Source: Eledone cirrhosa (lineage: Eukaryota). Taken from it: a stretch of DNA of 64,000 bases. The translations under genes were made by a program, and so were the position numbers. Below the pieces are notes generated by a model. The model saw nothing but the letters and a program-made list of their open reading frames with translations. It was not told the DNA's origin and did no database searches. Within the stretch, counting starts at the first letter, position 1. Every line of letters begins with the position of its first letter. Location of the stretch: contig OZ024740.1 of assembly GCA_964016885.1 (NCBI GenBank), positions 386,446,001 to 386,510,000 on the forward strand, read 5' to 3'. Below are positions 1-37,800 of this stretch, piece by piece.

Positions 1-131
1 GGAGGGCCGTTGCTCTATGCTATAGGGCAAACAATTATTATAATAATACTGAACTGTAACACTCAGCTTCAATTATATGAGCTCCTTCTAAAGTCAACAG
101 TGGACATGATCTTGTATCAGTACTGACGGTA

Positions 132-137
<6 letters not shown>

Positions 138-200
<63 letters not shown>

Positions 201-896: not shown

Positions 897-3800
897 ATGG
901 CTGGTGCGGTCATGTGCGAGAACCCCCCGACTGTCTTCAAGCAATCGCACTACAGGAAAAGGAACAACAAAAATATGAAGACGTCGCATCTCAGAGTTGC
1001 AACACTTAATGTTGGCACTCTCACAGGTAGATCTGGTGAGATAGTGGAGATGCTGGAGAGAAGGCACGTGGATGTGTGTTGCGTGCAAGAGGTGAGATGG
1101 AGAGGTGCCTCTGTGAGACTAATCGCAGGTAAACATCTTAGTTATAAGCTTTTCTGGGTTAGGGGGAGTAGGCATTTTCCAGGCTGAGAGATGGATCAAT
1201 AAAACAATAGAGGTAGTTCGAGTTAATAATCGAATAATTAAGCTTAGATTAGTTGTAGGCAGGAGACTACTGACAATCATATCTGCCTATGCTCCCCAAG
1301 CAGGCCTAGGTAAAGAAGAGAGAGACTGCTTTTATGAGCAACTTTTACAAACAGTCGCAATGACAGAGGACGGAGACATCGTTATGCTAGCAAGGGACTT
1401 CAATGGTCATGTTGGACAGCTCCAGGATGGTTACACTGGGGTACATGGTGGGCATGGTTATGGCTCAAGAAATGAAGAAGGAATGAGACTTCTTGAATTT
1501 TGTGATGCAAGTACATTGACCATTTGCAACACTAACTTCCAGAAACCTGCCAACCTCCTAATAACCTACAAATCAGGCGAGCACATAAGCCAGATTGACT
1601 TCTTACTAGTTAGGCAGTGGGACAGGCAGATGGTGTCAAATACCAAGGCATACCCCGGGGAAGAATGTACCCCACAGCATAGGTTAGTCGTTAGTGATAT
1701 CTCAGTAAGCAAGAGACGGAATGAGACATACAGGGAAGTGTGAAGAAGAAAGGTCTGGAAGCTAAAAGACCTTTCATTAAATACAAATTTAGGAAAGCCC
1801 TTCAAGATGTGTATGACGAAAAAGAAGACGTTTTAGAGTCGTATGACATAGATGATAACTGGAATTTCTTACGTGACAACTCACTGCAGGCTACTGATGA
1901 AACTTGTGGCTGGAGCAGAACTCTAACCAGAGAGAGAGTGACCTGGTGGTGGAACAGCACAGTAGATAGGGCCATTAGAGACAAAAGACTAGCATGGAAG
2001 TCTTGGGAAAAAGGTGGGAGTAGAGAAGGATATACAGCCGCTAAGAGAGAAGCTAGATGTCAGGTGTACTTAGCACGCAGGGAGGCTGAGAGTAGGAGGT
2101 TTGCCAATGTTCTGCGATGGGAAGATCAGAGGCGTGCAGTGTTCCACATTGCAAGGCAGTGTGTCAATGCAAATCAGGATGTTGTTGGAGATAAATGTGT
2201 CCGGAATGATGCCGGTGTACTTAGTGTCATGAATGATCACAAAAGGGAGCCCTGGAAATGTCATTATGAGAGACTGATGAATGTGGAGAACGAATGGAAG
2301 AGAGAGAAATTATCCTCAGTAGATCCAACAGAGGGACCAGCTATTGAGATTGACGAATATAGGGTCCAAGAGGCGATTAAAGAAATGAAAAATGGTAAGG
2401 CTGCCGGACCGTCGAGGATAGTTGCTGAGATGCTGAAGGCACCAGGGGCCGTAGGCACTAAACTGGTTGCACGCATCATCAATCAGGCTATATATGGCGG
2501 TGTCATACCCAAAGACTGGTGCAGCAGTATTCTCATAAATTGCTACAAAGGTAAAGGGGTTGATCTGGAGAGGAGCAATTATAGAGGTATAAAACTGATG
2601 GATCAGGTTATGAAAATTTGAGAAAGGATATTAGCACAACTAATCAGACGAAGGGTCAAACTAGATGAGATGCAGTTTGGTTTTGTGCCTGGGAAAAGTA
2701 CAACAGATGTCCTCTTCTTGGTGAGACAATTACAAGAGAGGTTCTTAGAGAAGAATAAGCCACTCTACTTAGCTTTTGTTGACCTAGAGAACGCCTTTGA
2801 TAGGGTACCCCGATCTGTCATCTGGAGGTCCCTAAGGAAACTAGGTGTTGAGGAATGGCTTGTGAGGACAGTGCAAACTTTGTACAGAGGTGCTGTCAGT
2901 AAAGTCAGGGTAGGAATGGAGTTTAGTGAGGAATTCCAGATACAAGTAGGAGTACATCAAGGTTCGGTCCTCAGCCCACTCTTGTTCATTATAGTCCTCC
3001 AAGCCATAACAGAGGAGTTTAAGACTGGCTGTCCATGGGAACTTCTCTATGCTGACGATCTGGTTCTTATAGCAGAATCATTAGAGGAGCTAGAGAATAA
3101 ATTCTGGCTATGGAAACAGCAGTTGGAAGCAAGAGGACTGAGAGTGAACCTAGCTAAGACAAAAATGTTGATGAGTAGAAAAGAGGACAAAACTTTGCTT
3201 CCGTCAGGGAAATGGCCATGTTCGATATGCAGAAAAGGAACTGGCATAAATTCTATAAAATGCACACAATGCAGATCCTGGGTACACAAGATATGTAGTG
3301 GGATAGCAGGAAAACTAACAGGTAGGGAGAAATACGTATGCAGTAGATGTACAGGGAAATTAGACAGTAGAAGTCGCATTGATAGACGCATTTTTCAATT
3401 GCAGCGGGTGCTATAGAAGTGGTGGATAGCTTCCGCTACCTAGGAGATCACATTAGCATGGGAGGGGGGTGTTCCGAGGCCATAGTATCTAGAATAAGGA
3501 TGGGTTGGAAGAAGTTTAGGGAGCTGCTTCCTCTGCTGACGAAGAAGGGTTTCTCCCTGCGTACGAAAGGCCAGTTATATGGTGCATGTGTGAGGAGAGC
3601 GATGCTGCATGCAAGTGAGACTTGGGCAGCAACTGCAGAGGATATGCGACGGCTGGAGAGAAATGATGTGCAATGTCAATGTGCGTGAACGACCCAGCAT
3701 GGATGTGTTGAGAGAGAAACTGTGTCTGAGAGGGATAGAATGTAATGTGCGAGAGAGGAGACTGCGGTCGTATGGACATGTGATGCGCATGGAGGATGAC

Positions 3801-12715: not shown

Positions 12716-13430
12716 TTTACATATATATATACATATATATACATATACGTGTTTTGCAACGGGTCACTTTGTGGCTCAATGAAAATTTAATAAATTAAAT
12801 AATCAGAGCTATATATCATAAAACATGTCTATAGAATCACATATATGTATATATATATGTAAACTTTTATATGTAATAATCTCCCATTAAGTTGAGATAC
12901 AAATTTGGCTGTATTGTGCTGTGCTTTCTAACAAAAATGCCACCAGTCGTAAGCAACTACCACACCCCTTCCAACCTGACCGCGGCTATGTCACGATTCT
13001 TAGCCATTTTGAATGAATTCTTGGCGCGATCACTTTGGAAAATTTAGTGTCTAGATAAGAGCAAACCTCCTGATGAATCCGATGCTCGAGTTTATATAAT
13101 TATTACATAATTATTGGAAAACTCAAAATGCGGATGAAACCATGGTAGAGGTATTTAAATGTATTCTATTTTCTCCTAGTTTATTTTACACCTAATTCTG
13201 TTTAGTTGACTGTATCTGGGTGATTACGCTGTCGAAATATTCGATAAATATTCCGTTGCGGACGACGCGAAGGGCTAGTTTCGGTTATTTGTTGAAGATT
13301 TCTTCATAGAAGCCTCATTCTTATAGCCTGGTCTATTCGATTTTTTATATAGTTAATTATGCTAATTGGGAGAGGAAATGGTATATATTTTATCTTGTGA
13401 TTCTATAGACATGTTTTATGATATATATAT
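12711..13430 (+). mobile_element. Non-autonomous Penelope-type (pLTR-like) cassette with nested inverted repeats and a hammerhead
   Basis: Inverted repeats 12811-12841/13397-13427 and 12711-12738/12841-12868. Flanked by (TA)n and contains the hammerhead at 13065-13152. Confidence 0.6.
13065..13152 (+). ncRNA. Type-I hammerhead ribozyme with canonical core
   Basis: acctc-CTGATGA-atccg...cggat-GAAA-ccatgg-TA-gaggt. GUA triplet with predicted cleavage after 13147, and an extended hairpin in helix II. Confidence 0.85.
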
Positions 13431-18082: not shown

Positions 18083-19803
18083 CATCATCATCACCGTTTT
18101 ACGTCCGTTATTCCACACTAGCATGGGTTAGATGGGTTGTCCTGTTGTGGGCAGTGTCTGGTCAGCTGACCATGCCTTGCTCATACAGGAACTGATTTGG
18201 CTTGATTTCTACAGCTGGATGCCCTTCCTAATACCAACCTCATTTACAGTGAGTGGTGGGTGCTTTTTCGTGGCGCCTACACGTCCACTTTACAGTGTGG
18301 GCTGGGTGCTTTTTTGCCGTGGCACCTCCACGACCACTTTGCAGTGGGAGGGTGTGGGGGCATATTGTCTATATGCTTCAGCTTGAACCCATAGGCGGTC
18401 AGGTACTCTGTATTACTGCGTGACGCCAGAGGTCACAGTTGTGTGTCATCACCTTGGAGAGGTGTAATTGGGTAAGGTCTGCTTTTATCACCTCATCCAG
18501 GTCATCTTGGGTCTCCCCACTCTGCTGTTTACATCGACTTCTAGTGCTCTGCACCTTTTTATGCAGCTGTCATCCTTCATACACATCACATGTCCATACC
18601 AACGCAACCGCCTCTCCTGCACACAGCATTTGATTCCTCTTATGCTCAGTATCTCTCTCAATTCATTTATGCTTTGTCGGTCGCATATATTACTATTACA
18701 CATCCATCGGAGTATGCAGGCTTCGTTTCTCTCTAATCTACGTAAGTCTTCCACCTTCAGCGCGCAGGTCTCACTACCATGTAACATTGCTGTTCGGATA
18801 CACGCATCATACAGTCTGCCTTTCATTTTGAGGGAGAAGCCTTTTGCAGTTAGCAGTGGCAGTAGTTCCCTGAACTTCTTCCATCCCGTTCTTACCCTAG
18901 TTATTGTACTTTCTGAACACCCACCTCCGCTGCTAATTCGGTCACCTAGGTAGCAGAAGCTGTCTACTGTCTCTACAGAGCCCTCCCAGAGATTGGTGGT
19001 ACTTGTTTCCTGTGGCTGTTTGCTGCTTGCTGTCCCAGTACAGCTGCTGCATGTGAAGCCTACATTCTTAATTAAGCTTCCTGAGATCCCGCTACATCTC
19101 TTGTGTACCCATTGTTTGCATTTGTGGCAGAGAATGGAGTTCCTACCTACACCTTTCCTACATACTGAGCAAGGCCATTTCCCTGAGGGGATCTGGGTTC
19201 TGTTTTCTTGTCTACTTACAAGGACCCTAGTCTTTGTCATGTTGACTTTGAGACCCTTTCTTTCTAGTCCCTGCTTCCAAGTTTGGAATTTATTCTCTAG
19301 TTCTACCATAGATTCAGCTATAAGTGCGAGGTCATCAGTATACAGGAGTTCCCATGGGCATCTAGTCTTAAACTCCTCCGTTATTGCCTGCAGGACTATG
19401 ATGAACAGGAGAGGGCTAAGGACAGAGCCCTAGTGGACCCCAACCTGTACGCTAAATTCCTCGCTATACTCATTGCTAATCCTAACTTTGCTGACTGCTC
19501 CCCTATACATGGCTTGTACAACTTTCACAAGCCATTCATCTACTCCTAGTTTTCTAAGAGCCCACCAGATTACAGCACGTGGAACTCTGTCAAAGGCTTT
19601 CTCGAGATCGACGAATGCCAGGTAGAGCGGCTTACTTTTAGCTAGGTACTTTTCCTGTAACTGCCTGACAAGGAAGAGGGCATCAGTGGTGCCTCTTCCT
19701 GGTACAAACCCAAATTGCATCTCATCTAGTTTCACCCGGTCCCTAATCAACTGTGCTATAAGTCTTTCTGTTACTTTCATGACCTGGTCCATCAGCTTTA
19801 TAC
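18083..19803 (-). mobile_element. RTE family 2 LINE, 5'-truncated, with long SINE-like 3' UTR
   Basis: RT motifs (QFGF, DLEKAFD, LLYTDD) and a PHD-like finger. Very similar to 36205-37918. Confidence 0.95.
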
Positions 19804-19873
<70 letters not shown>

Positions 19874-20567: not shown

Positions 20568-21240
20568 TAATTATAAATGTGAGAGAAAAACAGACAAAGA
20601 ATTACCTTTTTTTTTTCAAAGTCCCTACTGCAGTTTCATCAACCGTTTTGCAGCATTGGTGCACCAGAGAAGTGCACCAATGCTGTGAGGATGTCGAATC
20701 TTCAAGGAGACCCCTCATATTGTGGACTGTATCCTGGCCTGACTGTAAGAAAGTGAATATTTCTCTGGAGGGAGAAATTGTCATGTGGTATAGGTCACAG
20801 AAGGGAGGCAAGAAATAGCAGCCAGCACCCACCTAATTAACTCTACTAAAAGGGAGTTTAGACAATAGAGTAATAAGATATATTAAAATATATAAATATA
20901 TGTGTGTGTGATGTCCTGCTTTGACCAGTTTTACTTCAATGACCGAATTAGTTAATAATAATCAGAAGAATTAAAATAATCATTTAATCAGAGCTATTTA
21001 TCAAATTATAAATGTGAGGAAAAATGGACAACAAATTACCTATTTTTTCTTCTGTGACCTATACCACATGATGATTTCTCCTTCCAGAGAAATATTCACT
21101 TTCTAACAGTCAGGTCAGGAAACAGTCCACAATATGAGGGGTCTCCTTGAAGATTCAACAGCCTCACAGTATTGGTGCACTTAAGGACTTTGAAAAAAAA
21201 AGGTATTTCTTTGTCTGTTCTTTCCTCGCATTTATAATTA
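20568..21240. repeat. Inverted-repeat cassette (20568-20812 / 21048-21240) containing a hammerhead-like motif
   Basis: The arms are imperfect reverse complements. The right arm lacks the ribozyme's 3' half. Flanked by (TA)n. Confidence 0.8.
20621..20711 (-). ncRNA. Hammerhead-like motif with variant core
   Basis: Minus strand reads gtctc-CTTGAAGA-ttcgac..[14-bp perfect hairpin]..gttgat-GAAA-ctgcag-TA-gggac. Confidence 0.55.
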
Positions 21241-21420
21241 TATATATATAATTATCAATATAAATATATAATTATATATATATAATTATATATATATAAT
21301 TATCAATATAATTATATATATATAATTATCAAATTAAATATATATATATTGTTAGTTTCAGAAGATCCCGTTAAGGGTGAAAGCAGCGATTCTTTGCTTA
21401 AACTTTAATCTGTTATTTTA

Positions 21421-21470
<50 letters not shown>

Positions 21471-21514
21471 AGAAAAAATTTGCGAAATGGAAATGCGGGT
21501 ATATAGAATTTATT

Positions 21515-21631
21515 AGGTAACAATTGTTTCTATAGTGTATGAGTTACCTATACCTCGCTATTTGAATAATACACAAATATTATCAAAAACCGAAAGTACA
21601 CTGTAAGCCAACACACCATGTCATCAGACCT
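21515..21631 (-). ncRNA. Hammerhead ribozyme in the downstream pseudo-LTR
   Basis: Minus strand reads aggt-CTGATGA-catggtgtgt...atacactata-GAAA-caattg-TT-acct. Long helix II, palindromic helix III, GUU triplet. Confidence 0.75.
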
Positions 21632-22041
21632 TTGTATTAGAATGATATGAAAATATTTTATACACTAGATAAAAGATAAAGAAGGAGGTAGGAAGAGAAG
21701 GGGAAGAGGGAAGTGAGTAAGGTGGAGGGAATCTTAGGGTTTAAGACTGTCAGACTAGTAGAGATTGTGAAGAGAGAATGTTTTGGCAGCAGTTAGCTTA
21801 ATGAGGCATGCTAAGGTTGGCTGGGAAGTAGATACTTCTAGTGGTGTTGTTCGGACAAAATTTAGTTAGAGGGGTCAAAGTGGTACAATGTCACAGACAA
21901 GTTATTAGGGCTATTATAGTAGCAGGTTATTTCTAAAGGGGTCCAGAAAAACAGTGTTTAGTACTATTATTATAGAAAGTCATATCTAGTGTATAAATAT
22001 ATAAGACAGAAATTTGCAAACGTTGGCGCAAAAAGGTAACA

Positions 22042-24318
22042 TTATATGCATTTAAAAAAAGAAAAAGTCGTTTTCAAACGATGGTTACAGTATAGAGAAC
22101 GTTCAATTTTGCTGTTCAAAAGTTTGTTTACCGACGTTAAAATGCAGTATATCTCTAAATTGCATAACTTGCAGAATCGATGATTTTGCTGATATGCAGG
22201 CGCAGCTGCAATAATTTGCCAATCAAGGGAGAACGCTTGATTGTTCCTCCGAAGCTGCCAGGCTTTATCGGCGAGGGTTGTTATGGAGCGCATTTTCTCG
22301 TGCCTGATCGAAGATCGATGTTGGTATAGGCGAGCCTTGAAAGAAGTTGCGGTACATCCGACGTAATACCATTTGTTGGTCCCGGAATTTATTGTACACC
22401 GGTAGACAATATTGCGTGCTAGGCACTGGTTATTCAGTGGGCACGTACCTGGTTTGGTGCAGTTACAACTATTTTTATGTTTTGCAGTAGAATCCTGGAT
22501 AGTTTGGTGGGGTTGCGTGTTAGTGCGTTGCATGTTGCTATGCTGGTGCGCTGAGTCATTAGGGATGTACTTATTCAGTATTGCTGAGTTGAGTTTTCTA
22601 ATTAGTTGTTCTATGTTAGGTGCAGTGGAGTATGAGAGTCTAATGGTGCGCGAGTTAAAGATTTTATAGTATTTATGTGAAGTTGTAAAGTGTTTATTGA
22701 TTAGTGTATAGAATTGTGAGATAATCTTAGTGCTAATAGAAGAATTGTACACGGGGTTATACCATATGTACTCTCTACGTCTGACTCTATTTGCTGGTTT
22801 GCACCTGTTAGTATGCCTATTGATGTGTGTGTGTGGTGCAATACTAGTTCGACTTAGATGTGTTTTATTCATAGTACTTATGTGGTTATCGTCTAGATAT
22901 TCAATTTTCTCGCAGTAACCAGCTTTTCTAAGTGCGTCATTATAATATTCAGCATGCTCGTTGAAGGTCTGCAAATTAGACGACAGTCGGGAGATCCTTA
23001 TGGATATATTTTTAGGGATAGATTTAATAATGGAATGAGGATGGTTCGATTTTACATTAACGTACTTAAGATTTTCATTAAGTTTGTGAAATGGCTCTAT
23101 ATTACCGTTATTAAGGTTGAAGGTAACATCCAAGAAGTTGACCACCTTAAGATTGTGTTCAAAGGTAATATTAAGCCCTGGTTCTAAGAAAAGTTTCCTA
23201 ATGTTTTTACGTCGCCTTTCTAGGTTTTGTTTGTTCATATTCTTGACTAATAGAAGTGTATCGTCGCAGTATATTCCGCCGTGGAGGTCCGTAAATTCGC
23301 TCTGGAGTCTATGGGCTATATAGATCCCAACCAAATCCGTGACCTCCGCCGAATCATTAGAACCCATCGTAATGTCGAATTCCGAGGGTCTATCCCTGCG
23401 GACCCAATAACTATTTTCAAAGTGCACTACTGTGCGTCTAGCTTCAAGTATAATATTAATTTCCTCGTTTGTGAGGTCCGAGTTAGTCTTAGCGAAAGAG
23501 AGGGCCTTATGCAGGGTTTCGGGTGAAATAGAGGAATAGTATTCATCTATATCGAATTGAATAAAAGAAGATTTGTTTTTGTCCCTAATGTTATTGAACC
23601 ATCTTATTGCCTGATGAGTATTACCCCATAATTTAATATCTACCTTAGCCTTAACTTGGGGGATAATACGATCTAATATGTACTTACTAATCCTACCTAT
23701 ATCGGACTTTGAAGGACATATTAATCTAATTTTAGGGTTAGTATCGAAGTTATCCTTATGGTCCTTCAGATTAAAAGTCGGTGTAGCTGGGGATAGGGGT
23801 ACCGTTCTGTCGTCAATTTTCAGTTTCCTAACAATATCACATGCTGCGTTATTAATGTTGGTTAGTGTAGTTGCGTTTGTTTTTTTGTATTTCCTATGTA
23901 ATTCCTTACGTATAAAATTGTTATATGTTTCTACATCCAGGGTGTATAGATTCGAAGTTTTGTCTGCCTTTATGATAATTCCTTTGGTATTCCTTAGGTT
24001 GTTGAGTAGAGTTTTAATATCTCGTTGCAGTTCGTTTTTCCTTCCGTCTGTAAATTTGATTCCGGTTATCATTTTCATTAAGTCCTGTTCGAAAGAATCC
24101 AAAAGAGGGTTAGAGGGTGGGTTTTTGTAGGATTTGAAACCAAACTTCTCGTTGTTGGTGTCCGAAGTTTGTGTAATCCTTTTCCGATCGAAGTGGAAGG
24201 CATTCCATCTAATCCGCCGAATAAATTCGTTGGTCCTTTGTATCATACCAAGAATGTAATCCTTTTTACCCTGAATGGGTATGTTTTTTAAGGACATACC
24301 ACAATGATGTTTTTCCAT
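22042..24318 (-). CDS. Penelope-like reverse transcriptase / GIY-YIG endonuclease (758 aa)
   Basis: N-terminal SLKNIP, KADKT, RLICP, FIQFDIDEYYSSI, ITMGS, IYCDD, VNFLDVTF, SNHP, a CNC..CPL..C linker, then IVYRC...YYVG...FKARLYQH. Confidence 0.92.
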   Translation of the reverse strand: MEKHHCGMSLKNIPIQGKKDYILGMIQRTNEFIRRIRWNAFHFDRKRITQTSDTNNEKFGFKSYKNPPSNPLLDSFEQDLMKMITGIKFTDGRKNELQRDIKTLLNNLRNTKGIIIKADKTSNLYTLDVETYNNFIRKELHRKYKKTNATTLTNINNAACDIVRKLKIDDRTVPLSPATPTFNLKDHKDNFDTNPKIRLICPSKSDIGRISKYILDRIIPQVKAKVDIKLWGNTHQAIRWFNNIRDKNKSSFIQFDIDEYYSSISPETLHKALSFAKTNSDLTNEEINIILEARRTVVHFENSYWVRRDRPSEFDITMGSNDSAEVTDLVGIYIAHRLQSEFTDLHGGIYCDDTLLLVKNMNKQNLERRRKNIRKLFLEPGLNITFEHNLKVVNFLDVTFNLNNGNIEPFHKLNENLKYVNVKSNHPHSIIKSIPKNISIRISRLSSNLQTFNEHAEYYNDALRKAGYCEKIEYLDDNHISTMNKTHLSRTSIAPHTHINRHTNRCKPANRVRRREYIWYNPVYNSSISTKIISQFYTLINKHFTTSHKYYKIFNSRTIRLSYSTAPNIEQLIRKLNSAILNKYIPNDSAHQHSNMQRTNTQPHQTIQDSTAKHKNSCNCTKPGTCPLNNQCLARNIVYRCTINSGTNKWYYVGCTATSFKARLYQHRSSIRHEKMRSITTLADKAWQLRRNNQAFSLDWQIIAAAPAYQQNHRFCKLCNLEIYCILTSVNKLLNSKIERSLYCNHRLKTTFSFFKCI

Positions 24319-24525
24319 TTCAAAGACGCGGGTTGATAGGTTGCTCGACTGTAAAGGAGTGTGAAGAATTAGATAATTTGTATTCCAATGTTACTAAGTA
24401 GTTGCATTGGATGGAGTCAACTGACGTCAGAGTTTGCTCAACGTATAATAAAGTGTGTTTTAAAATCCGGAGAAAATATGGAGAAAAAATTTACGAAATG
24501 GAAATGCGGGTATATAGAATTTATT

Positions 24526-24642
24526 AGGTAACAATTGTTTCTATAGTGTATGAGTTACCTATACCTCGCTATTTGAATAATACACAAATATTATCAAAAA
24601 CCGAAAGTACACTGTAAGCCAACACACCATGTCATCAGACCT
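24526..24642 (-). ncRNA. Hammerhead ribozyme in the upstream pseudo-LTR
   Basis: Same motif as 21515-21631, offset by 3011 bp. Confidence 0.75.
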
Positions 24643-25395
24643 TTGTATTAGAATGATATGAAAATATTTTATACACTAGATAAAAGATAAAGAAGGAGGT
24701 AGGAAGAGAAGGGGAAGAGGGAAGTGAGTAAGGTGGAGGGAGTCTTAGGGTTTAAGACTGTCAGACTAGTAGAGATTGTGAAGCGAGAATGTTTTGGCAG
24801 CAGTTAGCTTAATGAGGCATGCTAAGGTTGGCTGGGAAGTAGATACTTCTAGTGGTGTTGTTCGGACAAAATTTAGTTAGAGGGGTCAAAGTGGTACAAT
24901 GTCACAGACAAGTTATTAGGGCTATTATAGTAGCAGGTTATTTCTAAAGGGGTCCAGAAAAACAGTGTTTAGTACTATTATTATAGAAAGTCATATCTAG
25001 TGTATAAACATATAAGACAGAAATTTGCAAACGTTGGTGCAATAAGGTAACATTATATGCATTTAAAAAAAGAAAAAGTCGTTTTCAAACGATGGTTACA
25101 GTATAGAGAACGTTCAATTTTGCTGTTCAAAAGTTTGTTTACCGACGTTAAAATGCAGTATATCTCTAAATTGCATAACTTGCAGAATCGATGATTTTGC
25201 TAATATGCAGGCGCAGCTGCAATAATTTGCCAATCAAGGGAGAACGCTTGATTGTTCCTCCGAAGCTGCCAGGCTTTATCGGCGAGGGTTGTTACGGAGC
25301 GCATTTTCTCGTGCCTGATCGAAGATCGATGTTGGTATAGGCGAGCCTTGAAAGAAGTTGCGGTACATCCGACGTAATACCATTTGTTGGTCCCG

Positions 25396-25449
<54 letters not shown>

Positions 25450-25721
25450 TATATATGTTTTTTTCCTGGTCCTCACCAATCTCGAACTTAAGTTCAGATT
25501 TATGTTGACTTTAAAATTTTCTCTCTCTTCCCTTTTTTCCCATCCCAATAACTTCCTTTAGTTATTGATGCACTGGGGTAAGATATATTGTCTTTAATGT
25601 GTTGAAATATCCATGACTCCCAGCAGACAACTGATGAAGGAAAATTATCTCCCGTTCTTGCTTTCCTCTTATTTATAAGTACACCTTATCCAGCAACTCC
25701 ACAGCCCTGTACATATATGTA

Positions 25722-26487
25722 TCTCAAAATGAAAGGCAGACTGTATGATGCGTGTATACGAACAGCAATGTTAGATGGTAGTGAGACCTGGGCGCTGTCT
25801 GTAACAGACTTGCGCAGATTAGAAAGAAACGAAGCTTGCATGCTCCGATGGATGTGTAATAGTAATATACGCGAACGGCAAAGCATAAACAAATTGAGAG
25901 AGAGACTGAGCATAAGAGGAATCAAATGGTGTGTGCAGGAGAGGAGGTTGCATTGGTATGGACATGTGATGCGTAAGAAGGATGACAGCTGCATAAAAAG
26001 GTGCAGAGCACTAGAAGTCAATGGAAGCCGCGGAGTGGGGAGACCCAAGATGACCTGGGATGAGGTGATAAAAGCTGACCTTACCCAATTGCACCTCTCA
26101 AGGGTGATGACACACGACCGTGACCTCTGGCGTCACGCAGTAATACAGAAGACGCGACTTCCCACGGGAACAAGCCAAAGCCGAAGCATATAGACAATAA
26201 ACCCCCACCCCCTCCCTCTGCAAAGTGGTCGTGGAGGTGCCACGGCAAAAAAGCACCCAGCCCACACTGTAAAGTGGACATGTAGGCGCCACGGAAAAAA
26301 AGCACCCAGCACTCACTGTAAATGAGGTTGGTGTTAGGAAGGGCATCCAGCTGTAGAAATCAAGCCAGAATCAGTACCTGTATGAGCAAGACAAGGTCAG
26401 CCGACTGGACACTGCCCACAACAGGACAACCCGTCTAACCTATGCTAGCGTGGAAGAACTCACGTAATATGGTGATGATGATGATGA
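25722..26487 (+). mobile_element. RTE family 2 3' fragment with SINE-like 3' UTR
   Basis: KMKGRLYDACIRTAML...GHVMRK...GRPKMTW. Same 3' UTR as 37627-37918. Confidence 0.92.
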
Positions 26488-27442
26488 TATATATACATAT
26501 ACATATCATCATCATCATCATCGTTTAACGTCCATCTTCCATGCTTGCTGGGAGGAATATATGGGAGAGAATAACAGTAAAAATATATGCAAAATTTAAT
26601 ACAAACATAGGAATAGTAGAGATAGAAGAGTAGAGATAATGAAAGTGGAATTAGGAGAGATAGAGGTGTAGAAAGAAAACTATTAAAAACAAGGAGAATA
26701 AGAGAGAGAGAGAGAGAGTGAGTGAGGGAGAGCTGGGAACTGGAGGAGGGTATAATAAGAGTAAGGTACAAGGATGAATATCTTATTTTTCATCTTCCCC
26801 CACCCCTCTCTCTCTTTCTCATTGCCCTTGTTTGTACTTTATTCCTTCTACATCTCTTTACCTTCTCCCATTTACTCTTTAGTTATCTCCTCCTCTGTTT
26901 GTACCCTTGTTTACATGAAATTTTTCATATATATTCTCACCCTGATTTTATGGATGGTTTCATGGTTTCTTTTATGTAAGATTAAGCAACTGACCTCTTT
27001 AAAGCATAACATGAATTTTAGTATATTCTTGGCATATTGATCAAAGTATATGTATCACATAATGATACACAATGGCAGAAGACATATTTATAAGGAAGGG
27101 AATTGAGATTGTGTAACATTCATGTTTTGTTTATTGGCACTACCAGTAAATTGAAATTGGATAACCAAATGTTTACCTTCTGTTTATTATATGGTAGTCA
27201 CCACACACTAAATATTCTATATTATAATGATTGTATGCCATTTTTTATCTGTCTGTCACATGAACTCATCAATCTGACAAAATGGTGCTAAAGTTCTTGT
27301 TTAGAATTCATGAAACACAATTAAAAAGGGGTAAATGTTTTAGAATACATTCATCCATGATAAAAGTCAGCATTTTCTTCAACACTGGTGTCCGTTTATC
27401 TTTCTCTCTCTGTCTATCTCTTTGTAAATATATATATTGTGA

Positions 27443-27660
27443 AGGCACATGGATGTGTGGTTAGAGAATTGGATTTGAATTCATGAGGTTGCGAGTTCGA
27501 TTCCTGAACCAGGCGATGCGTTATGTCCTTGGACAGGACACTTTATTTCATGTTGCTCCTTCTACTTGCAGTTGCAAACGATAGAGAGTACTAGCAATTG
27601 GAAAGACCAATGGAAACATTGTTTCCTTGGTCCGATTTGACGAAAGACGATTGACTGTCG
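27443..27660 (+). mobile_element. tRNA-derived SINE with a different tail
   Basis: Head aggcacatgg..gtggttagag..gagttcgattcc and body gtccttggacaggacactttatttca. Confidence 0.65.
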
Positions 27661-27679
27661 ATATATATATATATATATA

Positions 27680-27856
27680 TGAAGATCAGCTGAAAAGTTC
27701 ATAGGTTTACTATGAAGGAGTGATGCTAGAGCTCTGAAATTTTGCATGAATTAATTTCAACTCTTCTTATTAATAACTGCATTGTTTCTTTCTAGGGACT
27801 ATGTTGAAAAATAAACCTCATTTGGTCAGCCTATGAACTTTTCAGTCAACCCTCTT
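27680..27856. mobile_element. Tc1/mariner-type MITE
   Basis: Inverted repeat ctgaaaagttcatagg / cctatgaacttttcag with TA flanks. Confidence 0.65.
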
Positions 27857-27974
27857 ATATGTAATACATATACAGGATTAAACCAGTATCAAACTAGTTA
27901 GACTATTATTCAACAAGCTGGAACTAGCTGCCAAAATGGCAAGATCTCAGACATCAGGCCCCAACTCTTTCTAA

Positions 27975-28009
<35 letters not shown>

Positions 28010-28192
28010 TTATATAAAAATTTCGCTCTACATGGCTGAATACAATAAATGTAATCTGTTTTTTTCGAATATTAATAATAACATTCAATTCGTTTGCAAT
28101 TATGCAAACAAGCCTCATTTTTAAAGCCATGTCAGTAGAATGAACCCTTCATTCTTGCTCTTGTGTTGGCATGTAAACAGAACTGATATAAA

Positions 28193-28262
<70 letters not shown>

Positions 28263-28345
28263 GGAGGTGAGTTTTATTGTAGTACAATAAAGCAATGCAG
28301 ATATCGGATAAGAAGCACTCTACAGTTTGTAGGACTGGAGTATAC

Positions 28346-28564
28346 ATAATATATAAGATCAAAAGATGGTTAAATGAGTTCCATGTATTTTATTATGCGC
28401 ATTTCAAAAACAAATATCATCATGCAATAAGATTTGTGTTTTCATATCATGTCCTCCTATTTTATCTGATGAAAACACAAATCTTATTCATGATATTTGT
28501 TTTTGAAATGCGCATAATAAAATACATGGAACTCATTTAACCATCTTTTGATCTTATATATTAT
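28346..28564. repeat. ~100-bp inverted repeat whose right arm completes a hammerhead
   Basis: 28346-28445 is the reverse complement of 28469-28564 apart from a small indel. Confidence 0.9.
28458..28524 (+). ncRNA. Type-I hammerhead ribozyme with canonical core
   Basis: tattttat-CTGATGA-aaacacaaat...atttgttttt-GAAA-tgcgca-TA-ataaaata. 8-bp helix I and AUA triplet. Confidence 0.8.
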
Positions 28565-28611
28565 ATATATATATATATATATACATATATATATACATAT
28601 ACACATATATA

Positions 28612-28955
28612 TCATCATCATCATTCATCATCATTTCATTTTACGTCCGCTTTTTCCCTGCTTGCAAGGGTGGGACGGGAACTGATTCTGGCTTGATTTC
28701 TACAGTTGGATGCCCTTCCTAACACCAACCTCATTTACAGTGAGTGCTGAGAGGTTTTTTTGCCGTGGCACCTGCACAACCACTTTGCAGTGGAATGATA
28801 TGGACCCTAGTCCCTATCATCTCATTTCTACAGCTGAGTAAACTGGAGCAATGTGAAATAAAGTGTCTTGCTCAAGGAAACAACACATCACCCGGTCTGA
28901 GAATTGAACCGGTCTGAGAATTGCAAGGCCAATGCTCTAACCACTAAGCCTCCAT
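28612..28955 (-). mobile_element. tRNA-derived SINE with RTE family 1 tail
   Basis: Same family as 14225-14556. Confidence 0.85.
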
Positions 28956-28996
28956 TATGAATATGTATGTATGTATGTGTGTATGTGTGTATATGT

Positions 28997-29627
28997 CAGG
29001 TCACCACTTGGTGCTACTGGTAACATGTATCGCAGTACAACCTGTCCCATGGTCGGGTCGTTGGCGACTAAACTGGCAACCCCACCAAGGTTTCTTGGTG
29101 AGGAGGGTGACTTTGGACATCTGGCAGGACTAAAAACAAAACCTGTCAAAGGGCAAAGGAGCTCTTAAGAGTCAATTGCCATCCAAAATCACCGGGAGAG
29201 ATGACCCCTTAGCCTTTGTCAAGGCAGAATTCTAGGAGAAGGAAAACTTTGATATAACACCTGCAACCCTTATGGTGTCCAATGATGTTGACTTGTTCTT
29301 CTTTTTGGTAAATATCATCTTGGTTAAGAGAGTGGGACTGGCTTTGTGCAGTGCCTTTGCTCACTATAAAAGCTTCACGGCACAGGCATTGCTTTATATC
29401 TGGAGATCTCTCTGCACTTGTCGTCACATGGTACCATGGGCCCAGCACTATGTGTCAATAATTGTCACAAGCGTAGTGTTTGTACCAGAGTTTTCAAGTC
29501 GCTGGCTGGACTAAAAAGTCACACTCGTTCAGCGCATCGGTAGGGGTTCTCCTACATGGATATAAAGTAGTGGCCGTACTCGAAAACGAGTTGGCAGCCA
29601 CCATATGTATGTATGTATATATGTATG

Positions 29628-29659
<32 letters not shown>

Positions 29660-30261
29660 TATGTGTATGTACAACCTGTATCATGTTCGGGTCGTTGGCG
29701 ACTAAACTGGCAACCCCACCAAGGTTTCTTGGTGAGGAGGGTGACTTTGGACATCCTGCAGGACTAAAAACAAAACCTGTCAAAGAGCAAAGGAGCTCTT
29801 AAGAGTCAATGGCCATCTAAAATCACCGGGAAAGATGACCCCTTAGCCTTTATCAAGGCAGAATTCTAGGAGAAGGAAAACTCTGATATAACACCTGCAA
29901 CCCTGATGGTATCCAATGATGTTGACTTGTTCTTCTTTTTGGTAAATATCATCTTGGTTAAGAGAGTGGGACTGGCTTTGTGCAGTGCCTTTGCTCACTA
30001 TAAAAGCTTCACGGCACAGGCATTGCTTTATATCTGGAGATCTCTCTGCACTTGTCGTCACATGGTACCATGGGCCCAGCACTATGTGTCAATAATTGTC
30101 ACAAGCGTAGTGTTTGTACCAGAGTTTTCAAGTCGCTGGCTGGACTAAAAAGTCACACTCGTTCAGCGCATCGGTAGGGGTTCTCCTACATGGATATAAA
30201 GTAGTGGCCGTACTCGAAAACGAGTTGGCAGCCACCATATGTATGTATGTATATATGTATG

Positions 30262-30293
<32 letters not shown>

Positions 30294-30880
30294 TGTATAT
30301 GTGTATGTACAACCTGTATCATGTTCGGGTCGTTGGCGACTAAACTGGCAACCCCACCAAGGTTTCTTGGTGAGGAGGGTGACTTTGGACATCCTGCAGG
30401 ACTAAAAACAAAACCTGTCAAAGGGCAAAGGAGCTCTTAAGAGTCAATGGCCATCCAAAATCACCGGGAGAGATGACCCCTTAGCCTTTGTCAAGGCAGA
30501 ATTCTAGGAGAAGGAAAACTCTGATATAACACCTGCAACCCTGATGGTATCCAATGATGTTGACTTGTTCTTCTTTTTGGTAAATATCATCTTGGTTAAG
30601 AGAGTGGGACTGGCTTTGTGCAGTGCCTTTGCTCACTATAAAAGCTTCACGGCACAGGCATTGCTTTATATCTGGAGATCTCTCTGCACTTGTCGTCACA
30701 TGGTACCATGGGCCCAGCACTATGTGTCAATAATTGTCACAAGCGTAGTGTTTGTACCAGAGTTTTCAAGTCGCTGGCTGGACTAAAAAGTCACACTCGT
30801 TCAGCGCATCAGCAGGGGTTCTCCTACATGGATATAAAGTAGTGGCCGTACTCGAAAACGAGTTGGCAGCCACCCTATGT
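28997..30880 (+). mobile_element. Three tandem copies (~635-bp period) of a non-autonomous bipartite RTE-derived element with (TATG)n tails
   Basis: Units at 28997-29603, 29671-30237 and 30309-30874. Each has the RTE 5'UTR-like motif ctaggagaaggaaaactctgat and a terminal C2H2-finger coding remnant. Confidence 0.8.
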
Positions 30881-30893
30881 GTGTATATATCTA

Positions 30894-30936
<43 letters not shown>

Positions 30937-31003
30937 AAAATTAAGATAAATCAAAATGAATTTAATCTATTTAATCTATTTAATCTATCTATATATATAT
31001 ATA

Positions 31004-31716
31004 TTTAGAAACACACAGATACATGCGGACACACACATATATACATGAATGCATCCGCAGCTTAGGTATGATACTTTTTATTACTAATTATATCTAAATG
31101 TTTCTTCTCTCTTCATAATGTATTTTTAACTCTGATACTGGTTCAGTCTAGTTCAACTGAATTGGTCTGTCCCAGTCATTCATTGAGCAACATCGGTGAA
31201 GTTGGCACCCTTAACTCACAGTTGGGTGCGGATGCATTCATGTATATATGTGTGTGTCCGCATGTATCTGTGTGTTTCTAAATATATTGTTAATAACTCC
31301 CTCTGGTCGAGCAGTCTTTGAAGTGTGGGGACAACTGGAAAGCTTCCATTACTCATACTTTTCGCCTTCTTCACCACCTCTTCTACGGCCTCGATATGAA
31401 TACCCCCTCCGCCTCCGTGGTATTTTCTTCGTGGTTATAAGAGGCTTAGCTCTGTTTCTCGACCGTTATATCGCGTGACTATCTCCCCCTCCGCCTTTTG
31501 GGATTCTTTCTCACGTCGTGTAGACGCGTTCTTGAGACTAGTAAAATGAGGTATCCTCTTGATAAGTCGGCAGACCTCGCAAGGACTCTATATCTTTGAT
31601 ATATTGTTTTTGTTTATGCCACGAAACTACGTAGTCGAGGAATTTAGGAGCAGCTTAGGTATGATACTTTTTATTACTAATTATATCTAAATGTTTCTTC
31701 TCTCTTCATAATGTAT
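31004..31716 (+). mobile_element. Non-autonomous pLTR-like cassette with inverted and direct repeats and a hammerhead
   Basis: Inverted repeat 31004-31059/31227-31282, direct repeat 31057-31123/31650-31716, (TA)n flanks. Confidence 0.7.
31554..31641 (+). ncRNA. Hammerhead ribozyme, U3-A8 core variant
   Basis: tcctc-TTGATAA-gtcggca...tgccac-GAAA-ctacgtag-TC-gagga. GUC triplet. Confidence 0.72.
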
Positions 31717-32038
31717 ATATATATATATATATATACTATAAAGTAAAAAAGCAAGTCCATAGAATTATTTGATAATATATATATCATTTCATTTCTTCTC
31801 CCAATTAGCATAATTAACAACACAAAAAATCAATTAGACCAGGCTATGAGATTAAAAGGCACCTATGAAAAAACACTAAATATACCATAGCAGCGTCTTC
31901 GCGGCCAACTGCTATAAAATATCTACCCAACATTTCAACACCACGTGGAAATTAATTAAATATATGGTCAACCATACACAATTAGGTATAAAATTACAGT
32001 TAGAAATGCTTATATACATACCAGGATTAAATCACTAA

Positions 32039-32117
32039 ATCCCGACCCATGGGTTTCGTTCTCATTTTGAGATATCCTATTAAGGATAAATCTCGAGTTT
32101 TGAACTCTTCAGAGGAC
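32039..32117 (-). ncRNA. Type-I hammerhead ribozyme with canonical core
   Basis: Minus strand reads gtcct-CTGAAGA-gttc...gaac-GAAA-cccatggg-TC-gggat. GUC triplet with an inner hairpin in helix II. Confidence 0.85.
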
Positions 32118-32296
32118 AAACTCGAAGTGGCCCCCGCCAAACAGGAATTCAAAATGGCTGAGAACTGTGACGTGGCAGTGGTCAAGTCAGAAAGTGTGTG
32201 TTGGTTGCTTACGGCGAGTGAGCTGGTTACTAGAAAGTGACTTTGTTTAATTGGTGTATGTGTAAATATTTATATATATATATATATATATACATA

Positions 32297-32485
32297 ATTG
32301 TTTCTACTTTTGGCACAAGGCCAGCAATTACCCAGTGCATTACTGGTACTTTATTTTATCGACCCAGTAAGGATGAAAGGCAAAGTAAACCTCGGCGGGA
32401 TTTGAACTCAAAATGGCAAGGACCGTAACTCTATGCATCAAAGCATGGCGTCCGACCCTCTACTGATACTGCCAATCCACCGCTA
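32297..32485 (-). mobile_element. tRNA-derived SINE (second family)
   Basis: Reverse complement of the 42408-42597 type sequence. Confidence 0.8.
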
Positions 32486-32621
32486 ATCCACTGGCAATAT
32501 ATATACATAATGGAGGCACATGGCTTAGTGGTTAGCTATATATATATATATATATATTAATATAAGTATGTAACAGCCGTACTAAGAGTGAGAAATGAAA
32601 TTTCGTTTCATTTTTTCCGTT

Positions 32622-32671
<50 letters not shown>

Positions 32672-32703
32672 TATATAATCTCTCTCTCTCTATATATATA
32701 TAA

Positions 32704-32745
<42 letters not shown>

Positions 32746-32757
32746 ATATATATATTT

Positions 32758-33251
32758 ATTGTTATATTTGGGGGAGGAACATATTGTTATATTGTTAGAA
32801 TATTAATATTGCCAGAAATAATAACAGAACACACTCACTGTTTGGTTTGGGTTGGTTTTTGCTTCTGTATCTTTTATATCTCCGTAGTTAATTTATCTGG
32901 CAATGTTTATCATTATTTATTCTTGTCTCTGTCTCTGTATTAAATAAATAAATAAAATAAAAATGGCGTAGGCATTACAATACAATGGGAGGAAACATAA
33001 TAGTGCCACTGATGATGTCACAGATGTGTGTGTGACAAAAGCACTTTGATAGACTATATATATATGTTTATATCTGTATTTTTAACTGTTGGTCAATCAT
33101 TGATAAACATTGATGCCAGATAAATAAACTATGGAAATATAAAAAATACAGAAGAGAAAACTAATCCAAACCAAACAGTGAGTGTCTTCTGTTATTATGT
33201 CTGGCAACATTATAACAATATAACAATATGACCCTCCCCAAATATAACAAT
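32758..33251. repeat. Imperfect ~150-bp inverted repeat cassette with a broken hammerhead in the spacer
   Basis: Arms ~32758-32912 and ~33101-33251. The spacer contains agtgcca-CTGATGA-tgtcaca..tgtgaca-aaa-gcact. Confidence 0.75.
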
Positions 33252-33325
33252 ATTTGTTTCAACACATGATTTCACATCAAAAACCTTGCAAAACATATAT
33301 ATATATATATATATACGTATATATA

Positions 33326-33406
<81 letters not shown>

Positions 33407-33574
33407 ACATATATATATATATATTTGTATATATATTTATACACAGAGGTATCCACTGTAAGTTGTGGGGTCTATTCTGCACGAAGAACTCGATGTAATC
33501 CATATGTTGAAAATGTTGTAGGTTAAGATAAATCTCAGAAAACAATAAAACATTAAAAGGAAAACAGAGTCATG

Positions 33575-34380
33575 ATATAAGTTAAAACAATGAAATAAAA
33601 AATCAAGTCATTAGAGATATACTTCACTGCTTTACGATCGTTTCTAGATGGTGATAATACATTGTATCTATACTCAGTTATTGATCTATGTAAGTTTACA
33701 AACTATCAGATAGAGAGAATATATTATACTGAGTGCAAGTTACCACACCGTACTATATTGTGTTGGTTAAGTTGTACATTATCGCATTACTGGGTAATTG
33801 CTGGCCTTGTGTCTAAAGTAGAAACAATTATCTTATTATAATTTTCATCTTTTAATACACTATCTTTCCTAGCCATAACATTAATTTATATTCACCTTAA
33901 AACTCAATACAACATTAATCACCATTTATTTTGACATTCCTTTTAAATTCACTATACAAGATACATTAAACTATCAGTTTGACAATCCCCTTCCTTCCTA
34001 ATAGATTTTTATGCCATTTCTACTAACCATTCCTTTCAAAGGGTCATGACCTCAACTAAAGTGTATTACTTTTCATCTTAACATCATATGAAAAAAACAA
34101 TTTGATTCGTTAGTTCTTCAACTATCCCCAAATAAGGACATGATACTAACATGCTACTAATTCTGAGTAAAATTATTATTGAATAAATTTATTATTGCTT
34201 TTGAAAACAGCTGGTGATATGCATGTAAGTAAATATTCTCTCTATCTGATAGTTTGTAAACTTACATAGATCAATAAATGAGTATAGATACAACGTATTA
34301 TCACCATCTAGAAACGATCGTAAAGCAGTGAAGTATATCTCTAATGACTTGATTTTTTATTTCATTGTTTTAACTTATAT
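33575..34380. repeat. ~150-bp inverted repeat cassette (33575-33722 / 34233-34380)
   Basis: The arms are near-perfect reverse complements. The right arm overlaps a hammerhead. Confidence 0.88.
34194..34329 (+). ncRNA. Hammerhead ribozyme, U3-A8 core variant with long helix II
   Basis: attgctt-TTGAAAA-cagctggtgata...tatcaccatcta-GAAA-cgatcg-TA-aagcagt. GUA triplet. Confidence 0.65.
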
Positions 34381-34398
34381 ATATTTATATATATATAT

Positions 34399-34433
<35 letters not shown>

Positions 34434-34892
34434 CACACACATAATGAATTCTATTACTATATAATAGTACAAGAATAACTTAGTGGTAAACTGAGTCAAT
34501 GGTGTGATGTTGAGTTCTCATTAGAATAGCTTTCCATTGATGATACCACTTAAAAACCATGAATGTCGTAACAACGTCTATAAATTTAATGGCTCTATAA
34601 GAAATCAATATTTGCCCCCAGATAGTAAAGGTCATGTCAGAAGATTTTTAAATCTATATAAAGATGAGTGCTGTGAAATGGAAGAAGACATGTCTTTGAT
34701 CCAGTTTAGATTCTTGTTTGAAATCATTTCAATTCACTTTCACTGTTAATGCCTTTGAAAGAAGCATCTAATTTCTCATGCTCTACAAAATACCTATGTG
34801 AGGCAAATTAGGTTAGTGTGGTTTTAGATGTTGAAAGTCTAACTATCATGGATAAATAAATAATAAAAATGAGGCAATAAGACAATTACCAC

Positions 34893-37800
34893 AATAATAT
34901 CAGCTTACGCACCCCAATCGGGGCTGCCAGACGAACTTAAGGATAGGTTTTACGAGTCCCTAATACACACTACTGCTCTAACAGACGACAAGGACTTCCT
35001 AATCATCGCAGGAGATTTTAACGGACACGTAGGTAAACACTGCGACGGCTTCAATAGAGTACATGGAGGCCATGGAGTTGGCACAAGGAATGAGGAAGGA
35101 TTCAGACTTCTAGAATTCTGCGACGCCAATGACATGTCGATATGTAACACAAACTTTAAAAAACCCGACAACCACCTGATCACCTATAGATCAGGGGAGC
35201 ACTCTAGTCAGTTAGATTTTATCCTCATCAGAGGACGTGACAGATGGACGGTCGTAAACACAAAAGCCTTCCCTAGTGAGGAATGTACATCCCAACATAG
35301 CTTAGTTGTCAGCGACCTCACGGTCAGAACTAGACGAACCCGGAAACAGAGGCCAACCTGGAGAAGAAAGATCTGGAAGCTGAAAGTCCCCTCAACCAGT
35401 AACATATTTAAAGATATTTTACTCAACGCCTACGACAGTAAAGAAGAACAGATAGAGACATTTAACGTAGAAGAGAACTGGGAGTTCCTAAAAAATAATT
35501 TACTAGAGGCGACGGATGAGGTCTGAGGCTGGAGTAAGACCTCAAGCAGGAGGAGAGTGACTTGGTGGTGGAACAATAAGGTAGATGAAGCAGTTAAGGC
35601 CAAGAGACAGGCATGGAAAGAATGGAAGAACGGGGGGAGCAGGGTACATTACATAGAGACCAAGAGGGAAGCTAGGCGACAAGTATACTTAGCTAGGAGG
35701 GAAGCAGAGGATAGAAAACTCAAGCATGTTTTACAACGTGGGGACCAGAAACAGGAGGTATTCAAGATTGCGAGGCAGTGTGTCAGAGATAGTTGTGATG
35801 TCATTGGAGAGAAGTGTATCTGGAATGATAAAGGTGAGCTTGCCCTCACAAGTGCTGAGAAGAAAGATGCATGGAAGAGTCATTATGATAGATTACTAAA
35901 CGAGGAGAATGCATGGGAAGAAGAGACCCTACCCCAAGTAGACCCTATAGAGGGACCAGCAGTACAAGTCAGCAGCAGCGTAGTAAGTAAGGCAATCAAA
36001 GATATGAAGATGGGGAAGGCAACCGGTCCATCGGGTATAGCTACCGAGATGCTGAAGGCATCTGGGTCTGTAGGTCACACTATAACCACACGTATCATTA
36101 ACCAGGTAATACTAGAAGGGGCCATACCAAAAGATTGGTGCAGTAGCATCATTGTCAACTGCTACAAAGGTAAAGGCGATGCACTAGATAGAGGAAATTA
36201 TAGAGGTATAAAGTTGATGGACCAGGTCATGAAAGTAACAGAAAGAGTTATAGCACAGCTGATTAGGGATCGGGTGAAAATAGACGAGATGCAATTTGGG
36301 TTTGTACCAGGAAGAGGCACCACTGATGCCCTCTTCCTTGTGAGGCAATTACAGGAAAAGTACCTAGCTAAAAGTAAGCCACTCTACTTGGCATTTGTCG
36401 ACCTTGAGAAAGCCTTTGACAGAGTTCCACGTGTTGTAATCTGGTGGGCTCTTAGAAAACTAGGAGTAGATGAATGGCTTGTGAAAGCGGTACAAGCCAT
36501 GTATAGGGGAGCAGTCAGCAAAGTTAGGATTAGCAATGAGTATAGCGAGGAATTTAGCATACAGGTTGGGGTCCACCAGGGCTCTGTTCTTAGCCCTCTC
36601 CTGTTCATCATAGTCCTGCAGGCAATAACGGAGGAGTTTAAGACCGGATGCCCATGGGAACTCCTGTATGCTGATGACCTCGCACTCATAGCTGAATCTA
36701 TGGTAGAACTAGAGAATAAATTCCAAACCTGGAAGCAGGGACTAGAAAGAAAGGGTCTCAAAGTCAACATGACAAAGACTAAGGTCCTTGTAAGTAGGCG
36801 AGAAAACAGAACCCAGATCCCCTCAGGGAAATGGCCTTGCTCAGTATGTAGGAAAGGTGTAGGTAGGAACTCCATTCTCTGCCCCAAATGCAAACAATGG
36901 GTACACAAGTGATGTAGCAATTTAATAATAATTAAGAATGTAGGATTCACATGCAGCAGCTGTGCTGAAACAGCAAGCAGCAAACAGCCACAGGAAACAA
37001 GTACCACCAATCTCTGGGAGGGCTCTGTAGAAACAGTAGACAGCTTCTGCTACCTAGGTGACCGAATTACCAACGGAGGTGGGTGTTCAGAAAGTACAAT
37101 AACTAGGGTAAGAACGGGATGGAAGAAGTTTAGGGAACTACTACCACTGCTAGCTGCAAAAGGCTTCTCCCTCAGAATAAAAGGCAGACTGTATGATGCG
37201 TGTATCTGAACAGCGATGTTGCATGGTAGTGAGACCTGGGCGCTGAAGGTGGAAGACTTACGTAGATTAGAGAGAAACGAAGCCTGCATGCTCCGATGGA
37301 TGTGTAACAGTAATATACGTGAACGACAAAGCATAAATGAATTGAGAGAGAGACTGAGCATAAGAGAAATCAAATGCTGTGTGCAGGAGAGGCGGTTGTG
37401 CTGGTATGGACATGTGATGCGTATGAAGGATGACAGCTGCATAAAAAGGTGCAGAGCACTAGAAATTGATGGAAACCGCGGAGTGGGGAGACCCAAGATG
37501 ACCTGGGATAAGGTGATAAAAGCCGACCTTACCCAATTACACCTCTCAAAGACAATGACACATGACCGAGACTTCTGGCGTCACGCAGTAATACAGAGTA
37601 CCCGACCTCCCATGGGTACATGCTGAAGCATATAAACAATATGCCCCCACACCCCTCACCGCAAGGTGGTCGTGGAGGTGCCACGGCAAAAAAGCACCCA
37701 GCCCACACTGTAAAGTGGACGTGTAGGCGCCACGAAAAAGCACCCAGCACTCACTGTAAATGAGGTTGGTGTTAGGAAGGGCATCCAGCTGTAGAAATCA

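Follow-up and report, generated by a model that had tools for sequence, protein, structure and literature searches.

The type I hammerhead motif at positions 34192-34331 of the window (the whole 64,000-nt stretch of Eledone cirrhosa DNA analysed here, contig OZ024740.1, positions 386,446,001 to 386,510,000) is probably the terminal-repeat hammerhead of a Hydra-clade Penelope-like retrotransposon (PLE), carried in a truncated, two-armed insertion. Cutting is predicted to be slow and confined to double hammerheads formed via a palindrome, and the motif likely lies at the capped 5' end of the element's RNA. The motif belongs to a family referred to as F2, and its parts are as follows.

34192..34331, forward strand: whole type I hammerhead motif of family F2 (sequence, descriptor scan and genome word count)
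34192..34200, forward strand: helix I 5' strand, with A34194 as the most frequent starting base among truncated arms
34201..34207, forward strand: core U3-U4-G5-A6-A7-A8-A9 (UUGAAAA), from aligned copies
34208..34310, forward strand: domain II, 103 nt, with a weakly structured interior (folding, aligned copies)
34311..34322, forward strand: GAA, palindromic helix III (ACGAUCGU) and the GUA triplet
34323..34331, forward strand: helix I 3' strand (alignment of copies)

The features by which the motif was described in an initial annotation, namely a U3-A8 core, C-A at the base of helix II, a domain II of about 100 nt, a palindrome and GUA, are all present. The 7-bp helix I given there is the inner part, from 34194, of a helix of 9 bp, two of them G·U, that begins at 34192 (34192-34200 with 34323-34331), and its helix II of about 10 bp corresponds to a stem with one internal mismatch in which 10 of the first 12 positions are paired. 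GAA occupies 34311-34313 and the palindrome ACGAUCGU 34314-34321, with cutting predicted after 34322 (GUA triplet). In an alignment of 69 rows, reduced to 59 distinct copies by duplicate removal, U3 and A8 were kept in every copy, and the type I core (N3-UGA-N-N8-A, GAAA and NUH, with a Watson-Crick 3-8 pair) is seen in all 59 as UUGAAAA, GAAA and GUA. Helices I-III are formed with covariation and helix I is open. The 10.1-11.1 position of F2 is not paired; a C·A mismatch (C34208·A34310) stands there in 57 of the 59 copies, and in place of canonical loops there is the 103-nt domain II.

The presence of the motif was established by sequence inspection and a descriptor scan. When the window was shuffled 40 times, block by block at the dinucleotide level, no shuffle matched its strength and loose descriptor matches averaged 0.3 per shuffle, and the whole motif folds with a z of -2.37, 4 of 200 shuffles being equally good. 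A 20-nt word from the F2 core has 678 exact matches in the genome, the reversed control having none. Rfam did not match the motif at gathering, nor at E<=10 over 21000-35000. Judged from sequence and predicted folding, the motif is a real hammerhead fold of a known element class sitting in a dead copy.

The covariation claimed for the motif is borne out by comparison with the sister family F3, whose hammerhead has C3-G8, C·A, a 116-nt domain II, GUU and the same palindrome as F2. Across 22 paired positions, 10 have changed on both sides and 2 on one side, 9 are identical, one mismatch is retained and none is broken; a hybrid of F2 5' strands with F3 3' strands pairs at 13 of 21 positions, against 19. 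The 3-8 pair is U3-A8 in F2 and C3-G8 in F3, the other core positions being kept. Within F2 the evidence is weak because copies were partly chosen by similarity: variants common to at least 5 of the 59 copies are confined to domain II, two of them falling in its stem (G-C to G·U, and one at the existing mismatch). In two contig sets from one sample, frequent variants were found only in domain II and the flanks, and these were not counted as support because the sample may be the source sample. A conserved structure of the domain II insert was considered and rejected, as the F2 interior does not fold beyond chance (z = -0.31), though those of F1, F3 and F4 do; the interiors can be aligned only between F2 and F3.

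Upstream of the motif, copies of F2 continue as a 3' UTR rich in microsatellites and then as a GIY-YIG remnant. A near-full copy (locus L066) comprises a hammerhead, a 278-nt 5' UTR, RT, a C-terminal endonuclease, a 1.9-kb 3' UTR, a second hammerhead and a (TA)n end. A single ORF with RT followed by C-terminal GIY-YIG is found in this copy, in F3 (L121-L125) and, in the window, in family F1, the features of which are these.

22045..24390, reverse strand: F1 ORF, RT then C-terminal GIY-YIG, Hydra clade
24526..24642 and 21515..21631, reverse strand: F1 hammerheads, C3-G8, C·A, 90-nt domain II

The signature of the Hydra clade is RT first, GIY-YIG last, DKT and CxCX5C, according to the sections of Craig et al. 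(2021, PMC8557442) drawn on here. DKT is present in F1, F2 and F3, an RWK-like motif reads RWR in F2 and F3 and RWN in F1, and the parent ORFs carry the CxCX5C linker as well as CxxC and CxH around E and N; insertion is into (TA)n. The F2 parent and the F1 ORF of the window thus belong, as far as domain order and motifs indicate, to the Hydra clade, and a Neptune-type parent was rejected on the Hydra-clade features in the same sections. Naiad PLEs have an N-terminal EN and a DKA motif, and the Naiad set of N-terminal GIY-YIG, CxC linker and DKA is not that of the parent ORFs. The annotation had hinted at a Naiad-associated subtype. The shared C·A and long domain II of the F1 hammerheads stand, and with them a long-domain subtype (SH-aLRT 84, weak); the Naiad attribution falls, the ORF at L066 being RT then C-terminal GIY-YIG with DKT. 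Hydra units are described as generally under 3 kb, a descriptive and not a diagnostic feature (PMC8557442, in part), while F2 at L066 measures 4.7 kb between hammerheads because of its long, microsatellite-rich 3' UTR, and F3 6.1-6.7 kb. Nor is F2 a non-LTR retrozyme of short non-coding tandem units, as the parent has an ORF. The F1 ORF matched nothing in Pfam at E<=0.01, and a protein search returned 118 relatives. The RT half of F2 is 75% identical to intact F3 and 52% to F1. F3, with 3245 exact matches to its core word in the genome, has an intact ORF of 813 aa; its copies at L121-L125 are near-identical, include more-than-unit tandems and retain the intact 813-aa ORFs, and the family has likely been active recently.

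The F2 hammerhead of the window lies in one of the two arms of an insertion.

33439..33722, reverse strand: inverted arm of the insertion, -89 to about +193 from the cut site, ending in (TA)n
33723..34380, forward strand: direct arm, last ~660 nt of a Hydra-clade PLE 3' UTR/pLTR, ending at +57 in (TA)n

The direct arm carries an insert of about 40 nt of another repeat near 33790-33830. An inverted copy had been noted at 33575-33722, and it is indeed present (148 nt, 99% complementary to 34233-34380), but its extension of about 130 nt to about 33440 was missed; this tail (33446-33574, ~130 nt) is 5' UTR in full copies. Inverted 5'-truncated copies are standard PLE architecture, and the inverted copy here is the second arm of one insertion. 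Minimal PLE hammerheads have likewise been described as pairs on opposite strands, separated by 100-700 bp (Cervera and de la Pena, 2014, PMC4209133, in the portion consulted). Among 73 non-edge F2 3' ends, in a count whose first 30 loci were chosen with a short-end query, 45 lie at +56..60, 20 at +182..193 and none at the cut. In 16 of 16 two-armed F2 insertions a short end is combined with a long one (one tail interrupted), as it is in 14 of 14 clear insertions of a position-ordered sample from which 5 unclear ones were excluded. In F3 the ends are at +64 and +201, and a crude motif test found both kinds in 10 of 12 pairs. The tail of Anolis PAc (Frangieh et al., 2024, PMC11167929, cited here for the parts seen), for which uncut RNA is the template in vitro, is likewise defined by two internal RT start sites, and the F2 ends match this. 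Anolis PAc is of the Poseidon clade and has a 30-40-nt tail inside the ORF, whereas the tail of F2 is about 130 nt and lies in the 5' UTR, and in F2, unlike Anolis PAc, one site is used at each insertion end. At one further locus (L165, G000:C1 near 36,272,400) a direct duplication, a single case, leads from the region of the cut site into the beginning of domain II once more and looks as if produced by a template jump across the hammerhead.

The inverted copy had been suggested to pair with the motif and silence it. In a read-through RNA the inverted arm is indeed predicted to pair with 34233-34380 in a duplex of about -229 kcal/mol in which the F2 fold is lost, as an antisense silencer of a Naiad-associated hammerhead would require. 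That reading is nevertheless very improbable: the parent ORFs are not Naiad, the breakpoints of the arms differ from copy to copy, transcription is inferred to start downstream of the arm, the F2 copy here is without an ORF, and the arrangement is the usual one for PLEs. When the arms were compared for editing scars, they differed at just two positions (a T>C and a C>A), and nothing points to selection for disruption of the fold by the inverted arm.

Evidence for the position of the start came from the 5' ends of the arms. In a position-ordered sample of 41 F2 arms, 8 have their start 5-10 nt before U3, compared with 7 starts in the next 200 nt, and 10 of the first 30 F3 matches start likewise before N3; the mode in both families is an A seven bases before N3. 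These samples are blind to any arm whose start lies downstream of the search word. In a second sample, of 46 arms without that word, 22 starts are spread over the 121 nt below it. Untemplated bases are seen before the modal A, the adjacent one being G in six of seven scorable junctions (L189, L200, L284, L232, L239 and L249 but not L235; L234 is ambiguous), while four start-site junctions have no extra base. An extra G in LINE-1 products has been attributed to copying of the cap in the portion of that literature consulted, and no AG splice site precedes helix I in F2 or F3. The pile-up at A34194, often with an untemplated G, suggests that a capped transcript begins with the hammerhead, transcription putatively starting at 34194. 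With such a start a 7-bp helix I would remain and the inverted arm would lie upstream. In Drosophila virilis Penelope (Schostak et al., 2008, PMC2377424, in its sections on the promoter) there is also an internal pLTR promoter with a start upstream of the hammerhead, but 46 nt and a 75-nt intron precede helix I, whereas in F2 the start is placed at helix I itself.

The same pile-up might instead record the stopping of reverse transcriptase at helix I, for instance at the swapped helix of a double hammerhead, which stays closed while a single RNA is copied. In F2, in F3 and in a third family, of fold-back type, the ends do lie within the 5' strand of helix I, and the dimer fold is favoured. The modal A, however, is the same in F2 and F3, 7 nt before N3, though helix I could reach 9-10 bp, and the untemplated base next to it is in most cases a G, which is what copying of a cap would give. 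Such a stop is considered unlikely, though it is the rival reading of the pile-up.

The prediction of slow, dimer-dependent cutting comes from folding. For the F2 monomer the minimum free energy structure is a misfold containing a U3-A17 pair (predicted probability 0.85), and it is more stable than the hammerhead fold by 3.2 kcal/mol. For two copies the unconstrained minimum is a swapped-helix double hammerhead (-70.0 against 2 x -30.1 kcal/mol) whose helix III is intermolecular and 8 bp long; it is more stable than two monomers by 9.8 kcal/mol, although U3-A17 is favoured by 1.4 kcal/mol even in this dimer. F3 folds similarly but without the U3-A17 pair, and the two-copy minimum of F1 is not a double hammerhead. 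F2 would thus likely cut itself only when two copies pair, and both the C·A in place of G10.1-C11.1 and the U3-A17 pairing are expected to make cutting slower or to block it. The minimal PLE hammerheads of Cervera and de la Pena (2014, PMC4209133, same portion) similarly lie in pLTRs and are dimer-dependent and of low activity; unlike F2, they have a helix II of 7-8 bp with G10.1-C11.1, a long insert being unreported in that portion.

It is also conceivable that the F2 fold is kept but is catalytically dead or nearly so, acting as a scaffold for protein binding or priming by the element. The predicted U3-A17 pairing and the weakening of helix II by C·A would fit this, every insertion template seen passes through an uncut site, Anolis PLE insertion in vitro was unaffected by hammerhead mutants (PMC11167929, parts seen) and PLE hammerheads cleave poorly in vitro (PMC4209133, same portion). 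Against this, the core and the 3-8 pair have survived a double change between F2 and F3, U3-A8 variants are reported to be active in vitro, and a few arms begin at the cut site (4 of 46 arms without a core match, at -2..+1). Three of these four abut TA repeats, where microhomology explains the start, and the four amount to a weak hint of cutting. A dead scaffold is on balance improbable.

For the preferred reading, a terminal-repeat hammerhead that cuts as a dimer, the following course of events is proposed. The element protein would nick each of the two strands at a (TA)n target, and reverse transcription would start at two internal sites (+57 and about +190) on uncut RNA. Copying may traverse the hammerhead and come to the capped 5' end of the template, giving short arms and the extra G, or alternatively may run into the upstream sequence of a tandem or circular RNA, giving long arms, after which the two cDNAs would join head to head. 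Where two hammerheads meet, cleavage would separate a capped leader of 129 nt from an RNA of unit length. An extension of this scheme, which we regard as speculative and unlikely as a whole, is a dimer-gated decapping switch: the hammerhead comes first in the capped transcript, uncut RNA is translated and copied, RNA pairing removes the 129-nt leader, U3-A17 tightens the lock in F2, and domain II (90-116 nt) houses an internal promoter carried by the short arms.

Seven Hydra-type families were linked to a hammerhead in the DNA examined. Four have a domain II of 90-116 nt with a base mismatch (C·A in three, A·A in one, a decayed copy), and the remaining three have a domain II of 31-54 nt with a paired base. 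The four group on one side of a branch in a quick tree of about 230 columns (SH-aLRT 84, weak), and the long domain II was most likely inherited from one ancestor as a paired extension that is tolerated. The Hydra hammerheads in the sections of Craig et al. (2021, PMC8557442) drawn on here resemble F2 in being type I, near the 3' end, with a short palindromic helix III and (TA)n targets. Among the 25 families listed there, which include Hydra-1_Obim, 15 have a mismatched 10.1/11.1 position, U·U in 14 and U·C in one; outside these families, C·A is listed only for PLE-X1_cBra. All 25 have C3-G8 where F2 has U3-A8, and their loop 2 is 3-10 nt and domain II at most 26 nt, that of F2 being four times longer. 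As the published Hydra hammerheads show a mismatch in 15 of 25 and a domain II of at most 26 nt, the base mismatch is a habit of the clade and length is the new part, a domain II of 90-116 nt in one Hydra subclade being new relative to these listed families. U3-A8 in PLEs, base mismatches in Hydra and inverted 5' arms are all known already. In the literature searched, neither a domain II of about 100 nt nor a start at helix I was reported, though Lunse et al. (2017) may describe long stem II variants.

U3-A8, already reported in natural hammerheads, including about 1,300 motifs in Schistosoma mansoni PLEs (PMC4209133, same portion), is found here in F2, a distant family (L072), a tandem family at 31.5 kb, a fold-back family and short motifs, and is read as a compensatory swap that has arisen more than once. 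The annotation had stated that the motif at 31.5 kb is unrelated to F2 in sequence yet also U3-A8, and this is so, the two having only microsatellite in common.

31554..31641, forward strand: unrelated U3-A8 hammerhead, G-C helix II base, 57-nt domain II, GUC, in a ~591-bp non-coding tandem family

The ~591-bp unit (window 31050-31710) is retrozyme-like, its short non-coding tandem units fitting the description of non-LTR retrozymes; a DNA search with its motif gave no candidates, the 6167 exact matches coming from a pattern search. The fold-back family (L080:8600-8990, G000:C1 near 322,980,800) is about 390 bp long and consists of two arms arranged head to head, their centre lying just upstream of a UUGAAAA hammerhead core with a U·U base, a domain II of 75 nt and GUA; nearly all matches among its 1007 candidates are paired 115 bp apart and the centre shifts by a few bases. 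A non-coding tandem unit of about 996 bp (L123:1648-5746) carries a hammerhead with a 96-nt domain and U·U, with 2209 candidates. Hammerhead-like motifs with a palindromic helix III lie in the window at 13065-13152 and 28458-28524 on the forward strand and at 32039-32117 on the reverse strand, the last being the sole weak Rfam hammerhead match over 21000-35000; the 28.5 kb type sits after a Hydra endonuclease in L073. Broken LINEs with AP endonuclease, RT and PHD finger (34873-37626, 1123-3416 and 18491-19825) are unrelated to F2.

Thousands of hammerheads in this genome are missed by Rfam and by published descriptors, which excluded 10.1/11.1 mispairs, and counts for such genomes are therefore too low. 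The sister families F2 (U3-A8, GUA) and F3 (C3-G8, GUU), which share the same frame, offer a natural pair for tests of core tolerance. The most testable addition is the inferred start at helix I: if this is the true start, the role of PLE hammerheads would become testable by one 5'-end mapping experiment.
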